A stretch of 64,000 nt of DNA from Alphaproteobacteria bacterium (GTDB lineage Bacteria; Pseudomonadota; Alphaproteobacteria; Bin95), in assembly GCA_963665325.3 (NCBI GenBank), contig OZ224045.1, positions 480,001-544,000 of the forward strand, in the 5' to 3' direction. Made by a program: the position numbers and the translations under genes. Below the pieces are notes generated by a model. The model searched no databases and was not told the DNA's origin. It saw nothing but the letters and a program-made list of their open reading frames with translations. Shown piece after piece: positions 1 through 10,089 of the stretch (position 1 is its first letter; each line of letters opens with the position of its first letter).

Positions 1-2028
1 GTAGTGATGCCAGCCGCTCTTCTCCGTCGTGTAGGAGTAGGTCGAAACCAGCTCCGGATCGGTCATCCCGTAACGCGGCGCCCCTTGCGATATCTTCCGT
101 CTCCCGCTGCCGAGCGCATCACTATACCACGAACCCAGCGCGGCCTTCGTGCGGTCCTCATAGGCAAGCGGATTGCGGGCGGCGCGCATGGCGGCGCGCA
201 CGCGCGGCTGGATTTCGCTCTTCAGCAGCGCGGCCCGTTCAGCCAGTAGCGTGCGGATCGCGGCGATGTCCGCCTCGGCGACGCCCGCGACCTCGGGCGC
301 CAGGCGGGCGAAGTTGTCCGTGCGCTTGCCGAGCGCGGCGATCTCGTCGATCTGCCGGAGCGCCTGGCGCCCGAGCGCGTCGGGGCCGTCGACGCCGGCG
401 GCGCGGAACACCCGCGTGTAGGCCGGGTTGCGGCCCGTGTCGGCGAACCCGTCCCACTCACTGATCTGGCGAAGCCGCTCCAGCGGCTTGCGCCCGGCGC
501 GGGCCCGCATCAGCAGCGCGCCGCCCTGGTCGATCCGCGCGACCGAGTTCCAGGCCGCGCGCGTGGCGACGACATTGTCGAGCTCGAGGCCGACCGCGTC
601 CCAGTTGGCCATCCAGACGTCGGCGGAGAAGCCCCGCAGCACCTCCTTCGACCGGCCCTTGGGCAGGCGCTTCAGCGCGCCGAGCGTGCCGGAGTGGTCG
701 ACGATCTCGCTGGCGATGCCGACGATCCTGTCGCCGTCGCGCAGCAGCTCGGAAACCGGCGCGTCGATGCCGAGCTCCCGGTAGGCGCGGTTCGCCACCG
801 CTTCGCCGTAAGCCTGCGCCGCGTCGTCGTAGAATTTGACATAGCGCCTCACGCCGTCGGCGCCCTCGAAAAGCCCGCCCGGATTGCTGCCGGCCTGGCG
901 CCCGACCTGGCGGGCGGTGGCGTCGGCGCGGGAGAGCTCGCCGATGGCCCAGGGATCGGACGGCGCCGTGGCAGCCGACTGTCCCGGCGCATAGCCCCAG
1001 CCAGGATCGATTCCCTCCGGGACCTCGACGATGCGCGGGCTCGGGCCGTTCTGGCCGACGGTCACCATGCGCATGTTCAGCGGCGGCGCGGTGTCCGGCC
1101 CGGTCTTGCCGAGGCGCTGCAGGTCGCGGTCGTTCAGCGCCTCGACATAGCACTTGCAGCCCCAGCCGTTCGGCCCGTAATGCGTGTCCCACCACGGATC
1201 GTCATGGCGCAGCACCATGCCGTCCCAGGCGAGATGCTCGGCGCGCGGCTGCTCCGATGCGTGGCTGTGCCGGTAGCGCCAGTATGGCCGGCGGTCGGAG
1301 ATCGCCTTCATCTGCCGGTAGCGGCCCGCCGCATAGGACGTGCGCATGTTGGTGCCGTAGATGACCTGAGTGCGCCAGTTGCGCCCGCCCTTGTAGCTCC
1401 AGCCGTGCTTGGCGACGGTCGCGTCGAAGTCGCGGCGGAACTTCGCCAGCGTCGTGCCGTCCGCGATCGCGCTGTCGACCGCCTGGCGCAGGTCGCCCAC
1501 CAGGTCGGCATGGGCGGCGCCGGCGACGACGAAGGCGCGGTCGTGCTCGTCGTGCCAGATATCGGTCCAGGCTTCGGTCGGCAGGTTCAGCTTCGAGCGG
1601 AAGAAATCGATCTGCTCGGAGAACGACAGGCGGCTGTGCTCGGCGGCGGCCGAGGCGAGCGCGACCGGGACCTCCTCGACGTCGTAGCGCCCGGCGAGAT
1701 GCGCGGCGGCCAGCGCCGGGCCGAGCACCGCCACGGCATCCTCGACATCGGGCGTCGGCGCCCGCGGCGAGGCCAGCCAGGCGTTTGCCTCGTCGAGGCG
1801 GTCTCGGAATGCCTCCAGCGAGGCGTCCAGATCGGTGCGGAGGCCCTCCCACCAGGCGTCGATGAGCGGGCCAAGCTCGCGCGCGACGCGCGCTGTCAGC
1901 TCCGGGACCGGGCTGTCTTCTTCCTCGTCCTCGGCCAGTGCGCTCCCGTTACCGCCGCCGGCGTCACGCGCCCCGCCGGCGGCCGGCGAGGGGGGCCGGT
2001 GGATCTCCGCCTTCCGGCGCTCGCGTCT
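1..2028 (-). CDS. MuF/gpF head morphogenesis protein with C-terminal kinase-like extension (3' end outside window; frame also contains portal-type C-terminus)
   Basis: Hand translation, not in the ORF track: open from 2028 to base 1. MuF motifs EQIDFFRSK, HDRAFVVAGA, IYGTNMRTSYAAGRY, WRYRH, HLAWDG, PNGWGCKCYV, GIDPGWGYAPG. Confidence 0.88.
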
Positions 2029-3329
2029 TCAGGGTCGTCGGGGTCGTCGGGCGGGTCATCTTCCTCGCCCGGGTCCGCCATCACCCGCGGTTCGAGTATG
2101 TCATCGCCTTCCTCGGGCGCGTCCATGCCCAGCATTTCGAGCACCTGCGAGCTCCTCACCCTGAGGCCCAGCGGCACGAGCTTGGCCAGCGCGTCGGACA
2201 CGCGCGCAACGTCCAGCGTCTCCTCGCGCCCGATGACGATGCGGGGATAGCGTTTGCGTTCGCCCCGGTTAAGCGCCACCAGCGGGCGCGCGATGTCGCG
2301 CGACAGCGTCTGCGAGAGTGCAAAGGCGTCGGAGCGCTCGATATCGCGCCGGACCTCGTCATGGACGGTGCCCAACGCGCGCGAGCCGCTGTCGCCGACT
2401 TCCGTGGTGAGCGTCTGGCCGAGCACGGCCTTCGAGATCAGCGCGTCGATATAGGCCACAAGGTCCTGGTGCACCCCCGCCCGGCCGGTTCCGCCGCCGC
2501 CCTCGATCTTGGCGAACTCCAGCATCATCGATTCCGGGATCATCGCGGCCGCGTCCGAGCCGAGATTGGTCAGGGCCCGGAGCAGGAGCGCCCTGTCCTC
2601 CTCGCCCGCACCCGGAGGGAACTTGCCGATCCGGAACGGCTGGCCGTACGTCTCGATGAACTGGACCCAGTCCTTCGTGGCAAAGTTGGAATACAGGTAC
2701 CACCAGGCCACCATGCGCGCGAACCCGCCCCGGATCGGCAGACCGGACTTCGCCTTGAAGCGGTGGACCACGAACTTGAACGGCGCCAGCGGCTCGCGCC
2801 AGTTATCCAGGCCGCGCACGTGCAGCGTGCGCCCGTCGATATCGTCGAACTCGAACCAGCGCGGGTCGCGGTATTCGAGGCGCATCGGCCACCATCGCTC
2901 GGTTCCACGGTCCCACATGATCTCAGTGACCGAGAAGCCCTTGCCGAGCGCATCCATCATATCGACGAGTTCGTCTTCGAGCGGCTCACCGTCGACCCAC
3001 TCCTGAACCAGTTCCGCGTCGGCCTTCGCTTCGGCGTCGTCGCCGGCCGGGACCACGTTTACGTCGAGTTGCGCCGCCTGGCGTTTCCGGGTGCCGAGCA
3101 CAGCCAGATAGTGGAGGTTCTTCTCCTCCATCTCCTCGGCGAGCTCCAGGTAGCGGACCGCGTCGCCGGTCTCGGCCTCGCGCAGCAGCGCGCCCAGACG
3201 GCCGGGCGTAAGCCCCTGCGCCGGGTGCTCGGACAGGATCGAGCGCACGCCCGAGATCGTCGGGCCGGCCAGCTCGCGCTTCAGCTTCGAGGTTTCGACG
3301 ACATTGCCGAACTGGTCGTAAAGCGGCAT
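1896..3329 (-). CDS. Mu gp29-like portal protein (DUF935), apparently frameshifted near 1990
   Basis: ELAEEMEEKNLHYLAVLGTRK, DALGKGFSVTEIMW, WVQFIETYGQPFRIGKF, ISKAVLGQTLTT, ALGTVHDEVR. Confidence 0.92.
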   Translation of the reverse strand: MPLYDQFGNVVETSKLKRELAGPTISGVRSILSEHPAQGLTPGRLGALLREAETGDAVRYLELAEEMEEKNLHYLAVLGTRKRQAAQLDVNVVPAGDDAEAKADAELVQEWVDGEPLEDELVDMMDALGKGFSVTEIMWDRGTERWWPMRLEYRDPRWFEFDDIDGRTLHVRGLDNWREPLAPFKFVVHRFKAKSGLPIRGGFARMVAWWYLYSNFATKDWVQFIETYGQPFRIGKFPPGAGEEDRALLLRALTNLGSDAAAMIPESMMLEFAKIEGGGGTGRAGVHQDLVAYIDALISKAVLGQTLTTEVGDSGSRALGTVHDEVRRDIERSDAFALSQTLSRDIARPLVALNRGERKRYPRIVIGREETLDVARVSDALAKLVPLGLRVRSSQVLEMLGMDAPEEGDDILEPRVMADPGEEDDPPDDPDDPEDASAGRRRSTGPPRRPPAGRVTPAAVTGAHWPRTRKKTARSRS

Positions 3330-4715
3330 CTACCAGGCCTCCGCTCGGGACGGGCCGCGCTTCCAGTCGCCGCTATGGTCCGGGCGCCAGAACCCGCGCG
3401 ACCCGGCCGGGCCGTCCGCCGTGCGCGGCGAGCGGGCGCGCGGCGCGGCCGTGTAGCCAAACTCGACCGGGCCGGTTGCGGCAGCCGACGCCATCAGCGC
3501 CGCCGCCCAGAAGCGGTCCGCGTGGCCGTCGTCGCTGTCGTCGGCCAGCAACCGGACCTGGCCGGTCGGCCCGACGACCTTTTGCACGGAATGCAGGTCC
3601 GCCCGAATCTTGGCGTCGCCCTGCGGGATGCGGATCTTCCTGTCCTCAAACCGTTCCTTCAGGCAGGTCGCCATGTGCAGTTTCGACGCCGCGCTGAATA
3701 TCACGCCCTCGACCGTGTTCCGTCCGTAGCGGCGCTGCGCGTCCTCGACCGGCTTCTCTCCCATGCCCGTCTGGTCCATGGCGAGCCGCACCGGACGGTA
3801 GCGCTCCATCATCTCGTCGAGCGTCGTGTCCTGTTCCATGAAGGTCTTGCCGCCAAGGATGCGGACCTCGCGTGTCCATGCCACGTCTCCGATCATCTCG
3901 GCCGCCCAGGCACACCAGAGGTGGCGCCGGCGTCCGATATCGTTCCCGACGAAGCACTGCCCGCCCGTGTAATGTTCCGGATAGCCGGCGAGCGGGTTCT
4001 CGCAACTGTCGATCAGCTCGTATGGCAGCCAGGCCGACGCCTCGTCCAGCCACTCGCAGAGATACTCCTGGCGCCACAGTTCTTCGTCGGCCAGGCCGGC
4101 CCGAAGCTCCTCCGGGTCGACCGGGAAGCCGTCATCGACCGCCCGGTGGATGTTCACCATATGGCGCGACCACTGGCTGTCGTCGCCCGTCATCAGCTCG
4201 TAGAACTTTCCGGACTTCCCGTGCGGCGTCGAGGTGATGCGGATCTTCCAGCCCTTGGTGATCACCGGGAACAGCGCGCCCCAGATCTCGCGGCTGCTCT
4301 TGTGGATGGCGAACTCGTCCAGGAACACATTGCGGGAATAGCCGCGGGCGGTGTCGGGGTTGGCCGGCAACGCCGTCACGATGTTGCCGCCGCCGGCGTC
4401 CCACTCGTTGGCGCGGTATTTCTGGCCGTCGATGTCCAGATCGTATTCCGTTTCCTTCAGGACGAGCCCGTAAGCCTTCGCGTGCAGCTGGATGCCGGCG
4501 CGCATCGCCTCACGCGCCTGGCGGTCGCCGCGCGACAGGATCACCCAGGGAGACGCCCGCCCCTGCGAACGGGCCGTGTAAATGTCGTCGACGATCTCCA
4601 GCGTCGTGGTGAAGGTCTTGCCGACCTGCCGCGACCAGAGCCCGATCTTGAACCGGCTCCGGTCGAGGAACCACTTCTGCTGATAGTCATAGATCGGGAC
4701 GGCCGGCTCACTCAT
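3330..4715 (-). CDS. Terminase large subunit (Mu gp28-like)
   Basis: YQQKW...WSRQVGKTF Walker A, VFLDEFA Walker B, STPHG, GNDIGRRRH, HADRFWA nuclease motifs. Confidence 0.93.
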   Translation of the reverse strand: MSEPAVPIYDYQQKWFLDRSRFKIGLWSRQVGKTFTTTLEIVDDIYTARSQGRASPWVILSRGDRQAREAMRAGIQLHAKAYGLVLKETEYDLDIDGQKYRANEWDAGGGNIVTALPANPDTARGYSRNVFLDEFAIHKSSREIWGALFPVITKGWKIRITSTPHGKSGKFYELMTGDDSQWSRHMVNIHRAVDDGFPVDPEELRAGLADEELWRQEYLCEWLDEASAWLPYELIDSCENPLAGYPEHYTGGQCFVGNDIGRRRHLWCAWAAEMIGDVAWTREVRILGGKTFMEQDTTLDEMMERYRPVRLAMDQTGMGEKPVEDAQRRYGRNTVEGVIFSAASKLHMATCLKERFEDRKIRIPQGDAKIRADLHSVQKVVGPTGQVRLLADDSDDGHADRFWAAALMASAAATGPVEFGYTAAPRARSPRTADGPAGSRGFWRPDHSGDWKRGPSRAEAW

Positions 4716-8213: not shown

Positions 8214-8900
8214 TCAAACCCCGCCCTGCCGCAGCCATCCCCCGAGCTCGCGGATGAGCTGGTTGAGCGTCGAGGCGTTCAGCGCCGAATAGGGCTCCTG
8301 CGCGCGCCGGAACCCGACGACCCAGCTGTGCAGCGCGCCATGGTCGGCGATCTTGACCTTGCCCACATCGGCAAGTTTGCGCCAGAGCGCCTCCAGGATG
8401 CGCGCGCCGGGGTTGGGCGCCGGGCGCTTGCCGGAGCGCGCGTAGGGGCTCCAGTCCACGCCGCCGTCCCTGGCCATCCAGTCCTTCAGCGCCTCGATGC
8501 AGGCCGAGGTCTGCGCCGGCGTCGCCCAGCGCGCGGCGTCCATGCCCGTCTGGCGGCACATCCAGGCGGCGAGCGCCGTGTCCCGGTTGTCAGTGACCAC
8601 ACCGAGCCAGTATGCCGATATCCAGAGCGCCCGCAGCTTCGAGGTGTGCGGGCCGGCGGGGAGGACCGACGGACGGGAGGCAACCTTGGCCCGCCCGCCG
8701 GCCCGAACCGGCCGCCCTGTTTGTCGGCCGGCCAGGGCGGCCAGGACCCGGCGCATTTCGGCCTCGTTCATCTCCTTCAGCGATTCCTTTCCCGTGACGC
8801 GAACCTGCACCGCATGGCGCGCGTCCTCGTCGAGGCCGCGCCGGCGGCACTCGCCGAAGATCGCCCGGCGAAGGCGAGACAGGTCGGGCGCGGCAGTCAT
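8214..8900 (-). CDS. GemA / Mu gp16 (DUF1018) family protein
   Basis: RRRGLDEDARHAVQVRVTGKESLKEM...KLRALW...IEALKDWMAR. Confidence 0.85.
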   Translation of the reverse strand: MTAAPDLSRLRRAIFGECRRRGLDEDARHAVQVRVTGKESLKEMNEAEMRRVLAALAGRQTGRPVRAGGRAKVASRPSVLPAGPHTSKLRALWISAYWLGVVTDNRDTALAAWMCRQTGMDAARWATPAQTSACIEALKDWMARDGGVDWSPYARSGKRPAPNPGARILEALWRKLADVGKVKIADHGALHSWVVGFRRAQEPYSALNASTLNQLIRELGGWLRQGGV

Positions 8901-9931
8901 TCCGCCTCCTCCTCCTTGCCCCACAGCGCCGGATCGTTGCCCCAGACGGTCCAGCCGGGGCGGGGCTTGCGCCCGAACAGTTCCAGATAAGGGCCCGCGA
9001 CCAAGCTCTCGACGCTCTCATAGACTTCTTGCGGCTTCTCGCTGTGCTTACCGCGGGGCGCGAAGATTCTCTCATCGACGCCGGCGTCGATCCGAGACGG
9101 GCTGCCGCGCGTGCCCAGCAGACAGATTTCCACGCCCTTGCGCGTCCAGTAGCCCTTTGCCGGGGCGCCGCCCTTTATCCAGACAAGCCCCGTGGTCGAA
9201 TACTTGAACCCCCACCGCTTCAGCACGTCGAGCGCGTTCTCCAGCTGGTCGCTGGTCGTCCACATGAGCAGCACGGCGTCATCGGCGGCGCAGGCCTTGA
9301 CCTGCGGACCGAGCGCCTTGATGTCGTCGAGGGCCATCGTCGGGTAATGGTTCTCCGCCGAGCGATCCTTTCCCGCGTCGCTCCAGCTCTCGAACCGCCA
9401 GGGCGGGTCCGCCAGGATGACGGGCCACTTACCGACCGGGAACTCCCGAGTGTCGCCGCCACCGGTGTCATGCCGCCGCTCGATCAGGCGGCGCTTCACG
9501 GCGCCGCGTTTCATTTCGGGATGGATAACGCCGTGGTCGACCAGTTCGTCGAATGCCTCGGGTTCCAGGCCGGCGATCTCGTCGAGGATCAGCTGGTCGT
9601 TTGGGAGGGGGGTGTTAACGATGTTAACGCCGTCCAGATAACGACCGATGTTCGGGTCGAGGCCGATCCGCATAAGTCGTGCCGCCGTCTGCCGCGAAAT
9701 CGGCAGCGTCTGTGCGAGCCAGCCACCCCATTGGCCGTCGCCGGCCCGCTTCCGATAAGCGGCGAGCGCACGGCCGACGATGACGAATCCGACGACGCCC
9801 ATCCGCCAGCCGAGCTGCGCATGGTTCGTGCAGAGACGCTCGAAATCGGGCCAATGCAGCCTGTCATCGTCAAGCGGCGCAAGCAGTTCGCCGAGGCCCG
9901 CGCCTGCCGGCGGCAACACTTCCCCCGTCAT
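8897..9931 (-). CDS. MT-A70 family N6-adenine methyltransferase with N-terminal DUF3102-like domain
   Basis: VILADPPW, HYPTM, VLLMWTT, GYWTRKGVEICLLG, HSEKP, YLELFGR...GWTVWGN. N-terminal GRAL...GQWGGWL...ISRQTAARLM. Confidence 0.88.
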   Translation of the reverse strand: MTGEVLPPAGAGLGELLAPLDDDRLHWPDFERLCTNHAQLGWRMGVVGFVIVGRALAAYRKRAGDGQWGGWLAQTLPISRQTAARLMRIGLDPNIGRYLDGVNIVNTPLPNDQLILDEIAGLEPEAFDELVDHGVIHPEMKRGAVKRRLIERRHDTGGGDTREFPVGKWPVILADPPWRFESWSDAGKDRSAENHYPTMALDDIKALGPQVKACAADDAVLLMWTTSDQLENALDVLKRWGFKYSTTGLVWIKGGAPAKGYWTRKGVEICLLGTRGSPSRIDAGVDERIFAPRGKHSEKPQEVYESVESLVAGPYLELFGRKPRPGWTVWGNDPALWGKEEEAE

Positions 9932-10089
9932 TCCACACATCCCTCCCGGTGATGCCGTTCGAGCGTCACCACCAGTTTCGTTCCGTCCTGCGCCTCCAGC
10001 GTCATCGCCGGCATTTCCTCGCGCCTGCGGTCGCCTTCACGGCCCTTGAGATTGTGCGCCAGCACCTCGATCAGCTCGTCGGCGCTCAT
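9928..10089 (-). CDS. Small hypothetical phage protein (53 aa)
   Basis: Hand-read ORF MSADELIEVLAHNLK..., ATGA-coupled at both ends. Confidence 0.5.
   Translation of the reverse strand: MSADELIEVLAHNLKGREGDRRREEMPAMTLEAQDGTKLVVTLERHHREGCVE

Follow-up and report, generated by a model that had tools for sequence, protein, structure and literature searches.

What does a gene in the head module of a Mu-type prophage encode when its reading frame runs on for hundreds of codons past the minor head protein domain, and how is it translated when its conserved beginning holds no ordinary start codon? These questions are raised by a gene at the left edge of a 64,000-nucleotide stretch from an Alphaproteobacteria bacterium (NCBI GenBank assembly GCA_963665325.3, contig OZ224045.1; G000:C1:480001-544000, with the adjoining DNA as locus L004). 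The whole stretch is called the window here. The protein has a three-domain architecture and its gene lies in the head module. The middle domain has a kinase fold with conserved putative catalytic residues, and the last domain carries the motifs of an ADP-ribosyltransferase (ART). The reading that we favour, with a probability of roughly 0.72, is that this is a Mu-type minor head protein with an atypical kinase-like domain and an ART domain as cargo, the function and delivery of which we infer.

The window part of the MuF-kinase-ART gene lies on the minus strand at 1..1734, counted from its first canonical start, a GTG at 1734, and runs past the window edge. From this GTG the frame is open for 578 amino acids to the edge. 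It extends for a further 139 codons (417 nucleotides) to a stop at G000:C1:479581-479583 (L004 13581-13583), giving a full-length protein of 717 amino acids in three parts (P0002); the frame was followed to this stop in the genome from which the window comes. A public protein record of 715 amino acids (P0003) begins at codon 3 of the GTG-1734 reading frame, where the gene caller placed the start. The original prediction, made from the window alone, had described a MuF protein with a kinase domain and the start of a second effector domain, and its account of the DNA holds in detail. The strings that it quoted are all found in frame (GIDPGWGYAPG, GSNPGGLF, RYVKF, EAVANRAYRELGIDAP, DVWMANWD...DN, RIDQGGAL and MTDPELVSTYSYTT...Y). 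The distance from the MuF core to the edge, given as about 330 amino acids, is about 327 when measured from GYAPG. The boundary placed at 2028 agrees with the TGA at 2031-2029 up to which the MuF frame is open upstream, and the continuation that it proposed to translate in the adjacent DNA is the one that completes the 717 amino acids. The drop in G+C content reported near the window end is seen as 0.65 at positions 1-200 versus 0.72-0.755 at 101-600, and the ART-coding DNA beyond the edge is lower still (0.57-0.66).

Residues 1-277 (904..1734, minus strand) form a MuF or gp30-type minor head protein domain by both Pfam and PHROG. Phage_Mu_F (PF04233) matches residues 82-197 (E 6.2e-14, 53.1 bits against a cut-off of 29.6), and PHROG 220, 'minor head protein and DNA pilot', matches residues 4-277 (E 3.1e-94). 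The head module around the gene is complete and of Mu type, in the order lysozyme, gp27, TerL, portal, MuF-kinase-ART gene, gpG, gpI protease, cement protein and gpT capsid. The earlier MuF call is borne out by the two family matches and by this place between the Mu portal and gpG, gpI and gpT.

The middle domain, residues ~278-520 (175..903, minus strand), was assigned from an AlphaFold2 model, fold matches and residue conservation. The model, built from a 51-sequence alignment, has a mean predicted local distance difference test score (pLDDT) of 95.5 and a predicted template modelling score (pTM) of 0.88. It contains a bilobal kinase fold, with the C-lobe aligned to model residue ~248. Foldseek against the PDB returned seven matches at E<=1e-3, the top ones being 1cja, 3akk and 4hne, so named kinase folds were found for the segment encoded at about 480-900, in which the original prediction had read a HipA/PI3K-like kinase. 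The structural neighbours include the protein kinases CtkA (the best match), HipA, CotH, actin-fragmin kinase and Fam20, the lipid kinases PI4K-IIalpha and MavQ, and small-molecule phosphotransferases. The nearest named clusters in the ESM Atlas were HipA_2, PI3_PI4_kinase and LepB_N, each at 0.92, which is a lead only.

The motifs of the domain stand in the canonical kinase order, with a Gly loop GSNPGG (891-874), K300 (837-835), E311 (804-802), D372 (621-619), N377 (606-604), D379 (600-598), D386-N387 (579-574) and D402 (531-529). In the model the Gly loop lies between strands 1 and 2, the lysine in strand 3 and the glutamate in the next helix; N-W-D...D-N comes before a strand and R-I-D-x-G-G after the following strand. 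The N-x-D...D-N and I-D-N/Q-G patterns presumably resemble the motifs of type II PI4K. Conservation was counted in 210 domains from 204 proteins, aligned with a local hidden Markov model, of which 200 covered the core. D372 and N377 are present in all 200, K300, E311 and N387 in 199, D379 in 198 and D402 in 197, and the Gly-loop glycines are kept in 194-198. K300, D372, N377, D379, N387 and D402 occur all six together in 196 of the 200 domains. A pseudokinase scaffold was rejected because these putative catalytic residues are near-invariant.

By sequence the middle domain (~270-550) gave nothing above chance in Pfam (best DUF3708, E 0.1) or PHROGs (E 0.088). In NCBIfam it gave only MotC, far under its cut-off, and among PDB sequences myoglobins at E 0.4-0.6; CtkA chains did not appear in the PDB at E<=10 with either the single sequence or the family profile. 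On the model, the middle domain is best described as an atypical kinase-like domain outside every named family.

The third domain, residues 545-717, is an ART. The window holds the helical linker and the first ~34 ART residues (1..174, minus strand; the Pfam ART match begins at residue 545, window position 102), and the catalytic R622, S647 and E681/E683 lie beyond its edge. The full protein matches PF01129 (ART) with 28.9 bits against a gathering threshold of 22.3 and PF03496 (ADPrib_exo_Tox) with 25.2 against 23.4; for the ART domain alone the scores are 31.3 and 30.6 bits. The closest solved ARTs by sequence are 6dre/6drh (E 6.6e-10), which we take to be Serratia Tre1. The alignment with 6dre_B is in register at the Arg (fwRG/tyRG), Ser-x-Ser (afSsS/fmStS) and Glu-x-Glu (atEdEvlf/knEaEvly) motifs. 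What had been a guess at an ART from a start motif ('YSYTT...Y') now rests on two Pfam families above gathering and on R622, S647 and E681-x-E683 aligned to solved ARTs. R622, S647 and E683 do not vary among 27 full-length homologs, E681 is kept in at least 90% of them, and the family profile matches Vis, VIP2, CdtA, iota Ia, XopAI and ExoS/T in the PDB. The E-x-E form of R-S-E ARTs points to arginine-specific mono-ADP-ribosylation. By its motifs the C-terminal domain is a predicted arginine-type (R, S-x-S, E-x-E) mono-ADP-ribosyltransferase. The E-x-E motif is present in the window and in the related loci L014-L016 and L018, and reads Q-D-E in L012 and L013, two paralogous prophages of one metagenome-assembled genome (MAG). 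Switches of this kind alter target-residue specificity in R-S-E ARTs.

The kinase-like domain is found in a large number of proteins. An exhaustive HMMER search of representative clusters returned 3,410 at E<=1e-3, 1,636 at 1e-10 and 313 at 1e-30, with matches spanning query residues ~5-250, frequently within proteins of 1,000-3,900 amino acids. The domain is most closely associated with ARTs: 49 of 64 close homologs have an ART Pfam family, six of them also Portal_Mu. Among 53 rank-ordered representatives 22 have an ART (one DRAT), 20 MuF, three NUDIX and 18 no Pfam family. Of 21 large proteins, a hand-picked and non-random set, 12 contain an ART, seven MuF, seven NUDIX, and one each Acb1, a zeta toxin and an intein. 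In P0067, P0068, P0070, P0093, P0146 and P0163 the kinase-like domain occurs twice within one polypeptide.

Eighteen phage records are matched by the kinase-like domain; T4 is not among them. Pseudomonas phage Dolphis gp117, a protein of 1,222 amino acids annotated only as 'ADP-ribosyltransferase', matches the kinase-like domain over residues 648-808 (35% identity, E 6e-22) and has its ART at ~1119-1196; Dolphis is an example of the cultured phages in which the kinase-ART tandem occurs. Among BFVD models the domain is found in an 'ADP ribosyltransferase' of an uncultured phage (E 4.6e-15, template modelling score 0.75), in a 1,201-amino-acid 'portal protein' and in proteins of the Gordonia phage GodonK and the Mycobacterium phage Onyinye, and the kinase-ART tandem is seen among these models too. 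The label 'PI3K/PI4K catalytic domain-containing' has already been attached automatically to a few tailed-virus proteins in BFVD that are more remote. Within the window's taxonomic family (37 genomes) a single kinase-ART relative was found, in L007.

We propose that the MuF part would dock the protein at the portal inside the capsid and that the kinase-ART cargo would enter the next host cell along with the phage DNA. In that cell, host targets, in all likelihood proteins, would be phosphorylated by the kinase and ADP-ribosylated by the ART, which would serve take-over or counter-defence. An injected effector of this kind fits the domain company of the family (MuF, NUDIX, Acb1, zeta toxin).

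The gene that follows the ART bears on how such a cargo may be tolerated. An acidic open reading frame (ORF) of 132 amino acids (L004 13193-13591, minus strand), just outside the window, overlaps the ART stop by 11 nucleotides. Relatives of it follow the ART in eight of nine ART loci and in none of 29 MuF loci that lack an ART, a set which includes L017, L029 and L030 (71-80% identical in MuF) and some loci with short downstream flanks. The ninth ART locus, L007, has another acidic ORF, of 127 amino acids, in the same place, which hhalign relates to the small-ORF family with a probability of 3.3%. The 132-amino-acid ORF has 22 homologs, none with a usable source name and none with a Pfam family, and therefore belongs to no known immunity family by sequence; the ESM Atlas gave no usable match for it. 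Because it is present in eight of nine ART loci and in none of the 29 others, it is a candidate immunity or chaperone gene, its product being most likely a neutralising partner or a packaging partner. In the proposed scheme it would neutralise the cargo or aid its packaging. A small immunity gene downstream was among the things that the original prediction said to look for, and this cargo-linked ORF is what stands there. One 6.1-Mb contig of a Paracoccaceae MAG carries four Mu-type prophages (L012, L013, L015 and L016), each with its own MuF-kinase-ART gene (68-73% identity to that of the window) and its own small acidic partner.

The same small ORF also lends itself to another explanation, in which the lysogen would turn the protein on its competitors as a polymorphic toxin of the classical MuF type, the ORF would supply immunity, and the protein would not be a take-over or anti-defence effector of the infecting phage. 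The coupling of the ORF to the toxin end and its restriction to cargo-bearing loci agree with this, as do the lower G+C content of the ART-coding DNA and the change from E-x-E to Q-x-E among relatives, which would be expected of exchangeable cassettes; the MuF-toxin model of Jamet et al. 2017 (PMC5576092) would apply. However, the kinase-ART tandem is also found in lytic phages (Dolphis) and the domain occurs in giant polyvalent proteins with Acb1 and NUDIX, which points to action during infection, and the toxin and effector roles are not mutually exclusive. We regard a role confined to competition between bacteria as unlikely, although it is among the better of the alternatives.

The second question is how translation reaches the MuF frame. 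The portal gene encodes a Mu-type portal of 477 amino acids (1896..3329, minus strand; Portal_Mu E 9.3e-97), and over its last 133 nucleotides the MuF frame is open as well, at -1 to the portal frame. Ahead of the GTG at 1734 the MuF frame begins with a conserved N-terminal extension of 98 codons (1735..2028, minus strand) that contains no ATG, GTG or TTG. Homologs P0008, P0011, P0013 and P0019 start in the extension segment, and a CTG at 1938-1936 aligns with the homologs' initiator codon. The segment is internal in single-ORF portal-MuF-kinase-ART proteins (P0016, P0018, P0024, P0030, P0035 and P0042). MuF is always -1 to the portal in the window and in six further genome loci (68-73% identity, two Paracoccaceae MAGs), with an overlap of 52-136 nucleotides, and the viral contigs L030 and L029 show the same arrangement, making nine loci in all. 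The first canonical start lies 113-443 nucleotides past the portal stop in six of eight loci. For the 58 codons from the portal stop to the first shared GTG the ratio of non-synonymous to synonymous substitution rates (dN/dS) is 0.15-0.72 (10 pairs), versus 0.14-0.58 in the next 58 codons, which indicates that the extension evolves under purifying selection, like MuF proper.

An assembly error at homopolymers was ruled out by contigs from three runs of two studies, which reproduce window positions 1830-2243 without difference or indel; because these contigs agree, the offset between the portal and MuF frames is real DNA. None of the sequencing runs listed for the stretch is an RNA run. L007 has a different MuF N-terminus with its own GTG start and is therefore uninformative on frameshifting. 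The junction-survey rows L011, L024, L025, L027, L028, L034, L035, L037, L038 and L040-L043 were left uninterpreted, their automatic assignment being ambiguous or a separate portal-side ORF lacking.

Because no usable start exists in the extension and its frame is the portal's -1 frame, the likeliest way for translation to enter it is a -1 shift, whether ribosomal or transcriptional, out of the portal gene, a reading to which we give even odds. Such a shift would yield a minority portal-MuF-kinase-ART fusion. A candidate -1 recoding signal lies at 1951..1995 (minus strand) and consists of a heptamer, GCCGGCGGG and a hairpin. Its parts are the in-frame heptamer C CCC CCU at 1995-1989, GCCGGCGGG at 1980-1972, a G run at 1974-1971 and a GC hairpin at 1987-1951. 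A heptamer of the X XXY YYZ form is present in the portal frame in six of eight loci (CCCTTTT in three, CCCCCCT in two and TTTTTTT in one), and these heptamers sit just past the opening of the MuF frame. After the heptamer GCCGGCGGG is invariant, and in the MuF frame it reads A-G-G, as in fusion linkers. The GC hairpin of the window, with a 9-bp inner stem, begins six nucleotides past the heptamer, and the same inverted repeat can be seen by eye in L030. The consensus structure at the junction is a weak 6-bp stem only, Rfam gave only a chance snoRNA match there (E 0.64), and a metagenome scan for further junctions returned seven loci, none of them close.

Several observations speak against a frameshift. 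The nine -1 loci are related and come from only five assemblies. A canonical in-frame heptamer is limited to the six loci, L014 and L018 having just the U-run part, and codon shuffles produce one by chance in 5-27% of trials per locus. The RNA downstream of the heptamer folds no better than shuffled sequences (z -0.9 to +0.8). At the position of the homologs' start codon two loci (L012 and L013) have a TTG, and in all seven aligned loci a CTG overlaps the TGA of the portal gene. Reinitiation is therefore a live rival.

This rival would have the MuF-kinase-ART protein initiate separately at a non-canonical codon, either at CTG 1938, which has GGGAG four nucleotides upstream, or by termination-reinitiation at the CTGA. 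It accounts for the TTG of the two loci just named, for the CTG at the same position in the window and L015 and for the CTG shared over the portal stop, and it agrees with other clades, in which MuF is a separate gene and 13 loci have an ATG, GTG or TTG within -23 to +3 nucleotides of the portal stop. Against it, L014, L016 and L018 have nothing start-like at the homologs' start, none of ATG, GTG, TTG and CTG occurring up to and including the conserved acidic segment. In L030 the first 140 MuF-frame codons contain no ATG, GTG or TTG, and the codon at the start position, read by eye from the DNA, is CTT. Whichever candidate start is taken, conservation at the protein level, including the AGG motif common with in-frame fusions, begins upstream of it. 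That CTG initiates poorly counts further against non-canonical initiation. Separate initiation is the less probable route into the frame, and we hold it doubtful.

Relatives show the junction in other states. L017, with 76% MuF identity, has an in-frame portal-MuF fusion in DNA colinear with the window, with nine nucleotides instead of eight between CCGCCGGCG and GACGCCGGCGGC. Two Mu-type viral contigs that are further removed, L032 and L033, encode the 'extension' segment at the C-terminal end of their portal ORF, and their MuF initiates through ATGA coupling; the border between the portal and MuF genes has moved in the course of evolution. In L015 (3795) the portal frame ends ~10 codons past the heptamer, without the basic tail present in the others, which suggests that the portal-frame tail after the start of the overlap is dispensable.

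A more far-reaching version of the -1 shift would tie these features together. Conserved -1 recoding would extend a minority of portal subunits, so that a fixed, small number of two-enzyme warheads sits at the portal vertex and is released into the next host. The kinase part would belong to a very large phage-injected family (more than 3,400 clusters at 50% identity) that acts together with ADP-ribosylation, and the acidic protein would be a dedicated inhibitor or chaperone. This is put forward tentatively, and we think it somewhat likelier to be wrong than right.

Certain points also tell against the kinase half of the favoured reading. The kinase assignment of the modelled domain holds at the level of fold only. 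PI3_PI4_kinase (PF00454) and the HipA families gave no Pfam match at E<=10 with the whole protein or its middle 290 amino acids, and the family profile found only ARTs in the PDB and no solved kinase; the single sequence gave no solved kinase either. K300, D379, N387 and D402 are equated with catalytic residues on order, conservation and secondary structure. Kinase folds also perform other chemistries and act on small molecules. The domain could accordingly be an enzyme of the kinase fold that is not a protein kinase, phosphorylating a lipid or a small molecule such as a nucleotide signal or a compound related to nicotinamide adenine dinucleotide (NAD) or ADP-ribose, or carrying out another transfer from ATP (AMPylation, glutamylation). 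PI4K-IIalpha, MavQ and small-molecule phosphotransferases are among its structural neighbours, and it co-occurs with enzymes of NAD and ADP-ribose (ART, NUDIX) and with Acb1, which acts on nucleotide signals. However, the best match, CtkA, is a protein kinase, as are HipA, CotH, actin-fragmin kinase and Fam20, and no sequence feature marks a small-molecule pocket. We consider an activity of this other kind improbable.

Gene decay, in which a one-nucleotide deletion split a portal-MuF fusion and left the cargo unexpressed, or in which product is made only from GTG 1734 and the extension is untranslated, would explain the single linker nucleotide by which L017 differs and the start chosen in P0003, but it is very improbable given that the -1 arrangement is kept in nine loci diverged to 68-80% identity, that the downstream frame of ~800 codons stays open in seven genome loci, that dN/dS in the extension resembles that of MuF proper and that the catalytic residues are intact.

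The favoured reading, a head protein with kinase-like and ART cargo, can be set beside described systems. MuF toxins, MuF-ART fusions and polyvalent injected proteins have been described (PMC5576092, PMC5512222 and PMC9503650, each drawn on in part). The MuF toxins and MuF-ART fusions of PMC5576092 and PMC9503650 (Iyer et al. 2022) resemble this gene in that MuF is encoded beside portal and terminase, that the C-terminus holds a toxin, in many cases an ART, and that a small ORF lies downstream; delivery with the phage DNA is the route proposed there too. The present protein differs by its kinase-fold domain of ~245 amino acids between MuF and ART; the parts of these two accounts that were drawn on mention no kinase, and the word 'kinase' does not occur in the main text of PMC5576092. 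The polyvalent proteins of Iyer et al. 2017 (PMC5512222) are likewise multi-enzyme proteins, packaged and injected at invasion, which in the portion of that source used here combine MuF, ART, NUDIX and a zeta-toxin kinase. The kinase type described in that portion has no C-terminal subdomain at all and occurs chiefly in Verrucomicrobia-Chlamydia and Bacteroidetes, whereas the domain here has a C-lobe. The main texts of PMC5512222 and PMC3482391 do not contain the words PI3K, HipA or CtkA, nor does that of PMC5512222 contain phosphatidylinositol.

Helicobacter pylori CtkA (PDB 3akj/3akk/3akl) is a Ser/Thr kinase delivered by the type IV secretion system of the tfs3 integrative and conjugative element, according to the part of PMC5536186 consulted. 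It has no detectable sequence relationship to the domain described here (17% identity in the structural alignment), and it is free-standing and acts on human cells, whereas the domain here shares its polypeptide with an ART and a phage head protein. With respect to HipA, type II PI4K and actin-fragmin kinase, the domain is no member of PF00454 or HipA by Pfam and stands in another context, and this locus has no HipB-type partner. For an injected ART and for a phage kinase that acts early there are precedents: in the passages of PMC5512222 used here, phage T4 Alt is an ART that is packaged in the head, is injected and modifies host RNA polymerase among other proteins, and the T7 protein kinase phosphorylates host proteins early in infection. 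Those are two proteins of two phages, whereas here both predicted activities lie in one polypeptide tied to MuF. The effector of 6dre/6drh that a type VI secretion system (T6SS) delivers ('PAAR repeat-containing protein'), Vis, VIP2 and iota Ia share the R, S-x-S and E-x-E motifs with the ART here, but they are delivered through PAAR and the T6SS or as binary toxins rather than in a phage head.

MuF-toxin and MuF-ART head fusions are thus known, and the kinase-fold domain between them is unnamed in Pfam, PHROGs, NCBIfam and the literature searched; the main texts of that literature contained no description of the domain or of a portal-MuF frameshift. The domain is present in thousands of phage protein clusters with an almost invariant putative catalytic set. 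If it is active, joint injection of a kinase and an ART would be common among phages and would come at the very onset of infection, as a new layer of take-over or counter-defence, and the annotation of many phage 'ADP-ribosyltransferase' and 'hypothetical' giants would be corrected. If the -1 arrangement of portal and MuF is a programmed frameshift, it would be a simple rule that fixes how many effector copies are loaded at the portal, and it would account for the truncation of these genes by gene callers. Through the small acidic partner one could approach how the cargo is tolerated in the producing cell or in the capsid. The possible points of interest are a large unnamed kinase family, its tight pairing with ART, a cargo-linked small gene and a possible portal-MuF recoding.

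Other genes of the prophage surround this locus. TerL (3330-4715) adjoins the portal gene, and MuA, MuB, Gam and GemA, with an MT-A70 methylase, are located at 8-16 kb. The small acidic gene and gpG are separated by an ORF of 89 amino acids (L004 12997-13266, minus strand) that is without a match in Pfam or PHROG and has no obvious counterpart among relatives. The MT-A70 family methyltransferase (window 8897-9940, minus strand; E 1.7e-24) lies in the early/middle region beside GemA and is the prophage's second methylase. The other is a D12-class N6-adenine DNA methyltransferase (L004 11625-12512, plus strand; Pfam E 1.4e-22) just outside the window. It sits between gpG and the gpI protease of the head module, on the opposite strand, and looks like a moron gene.

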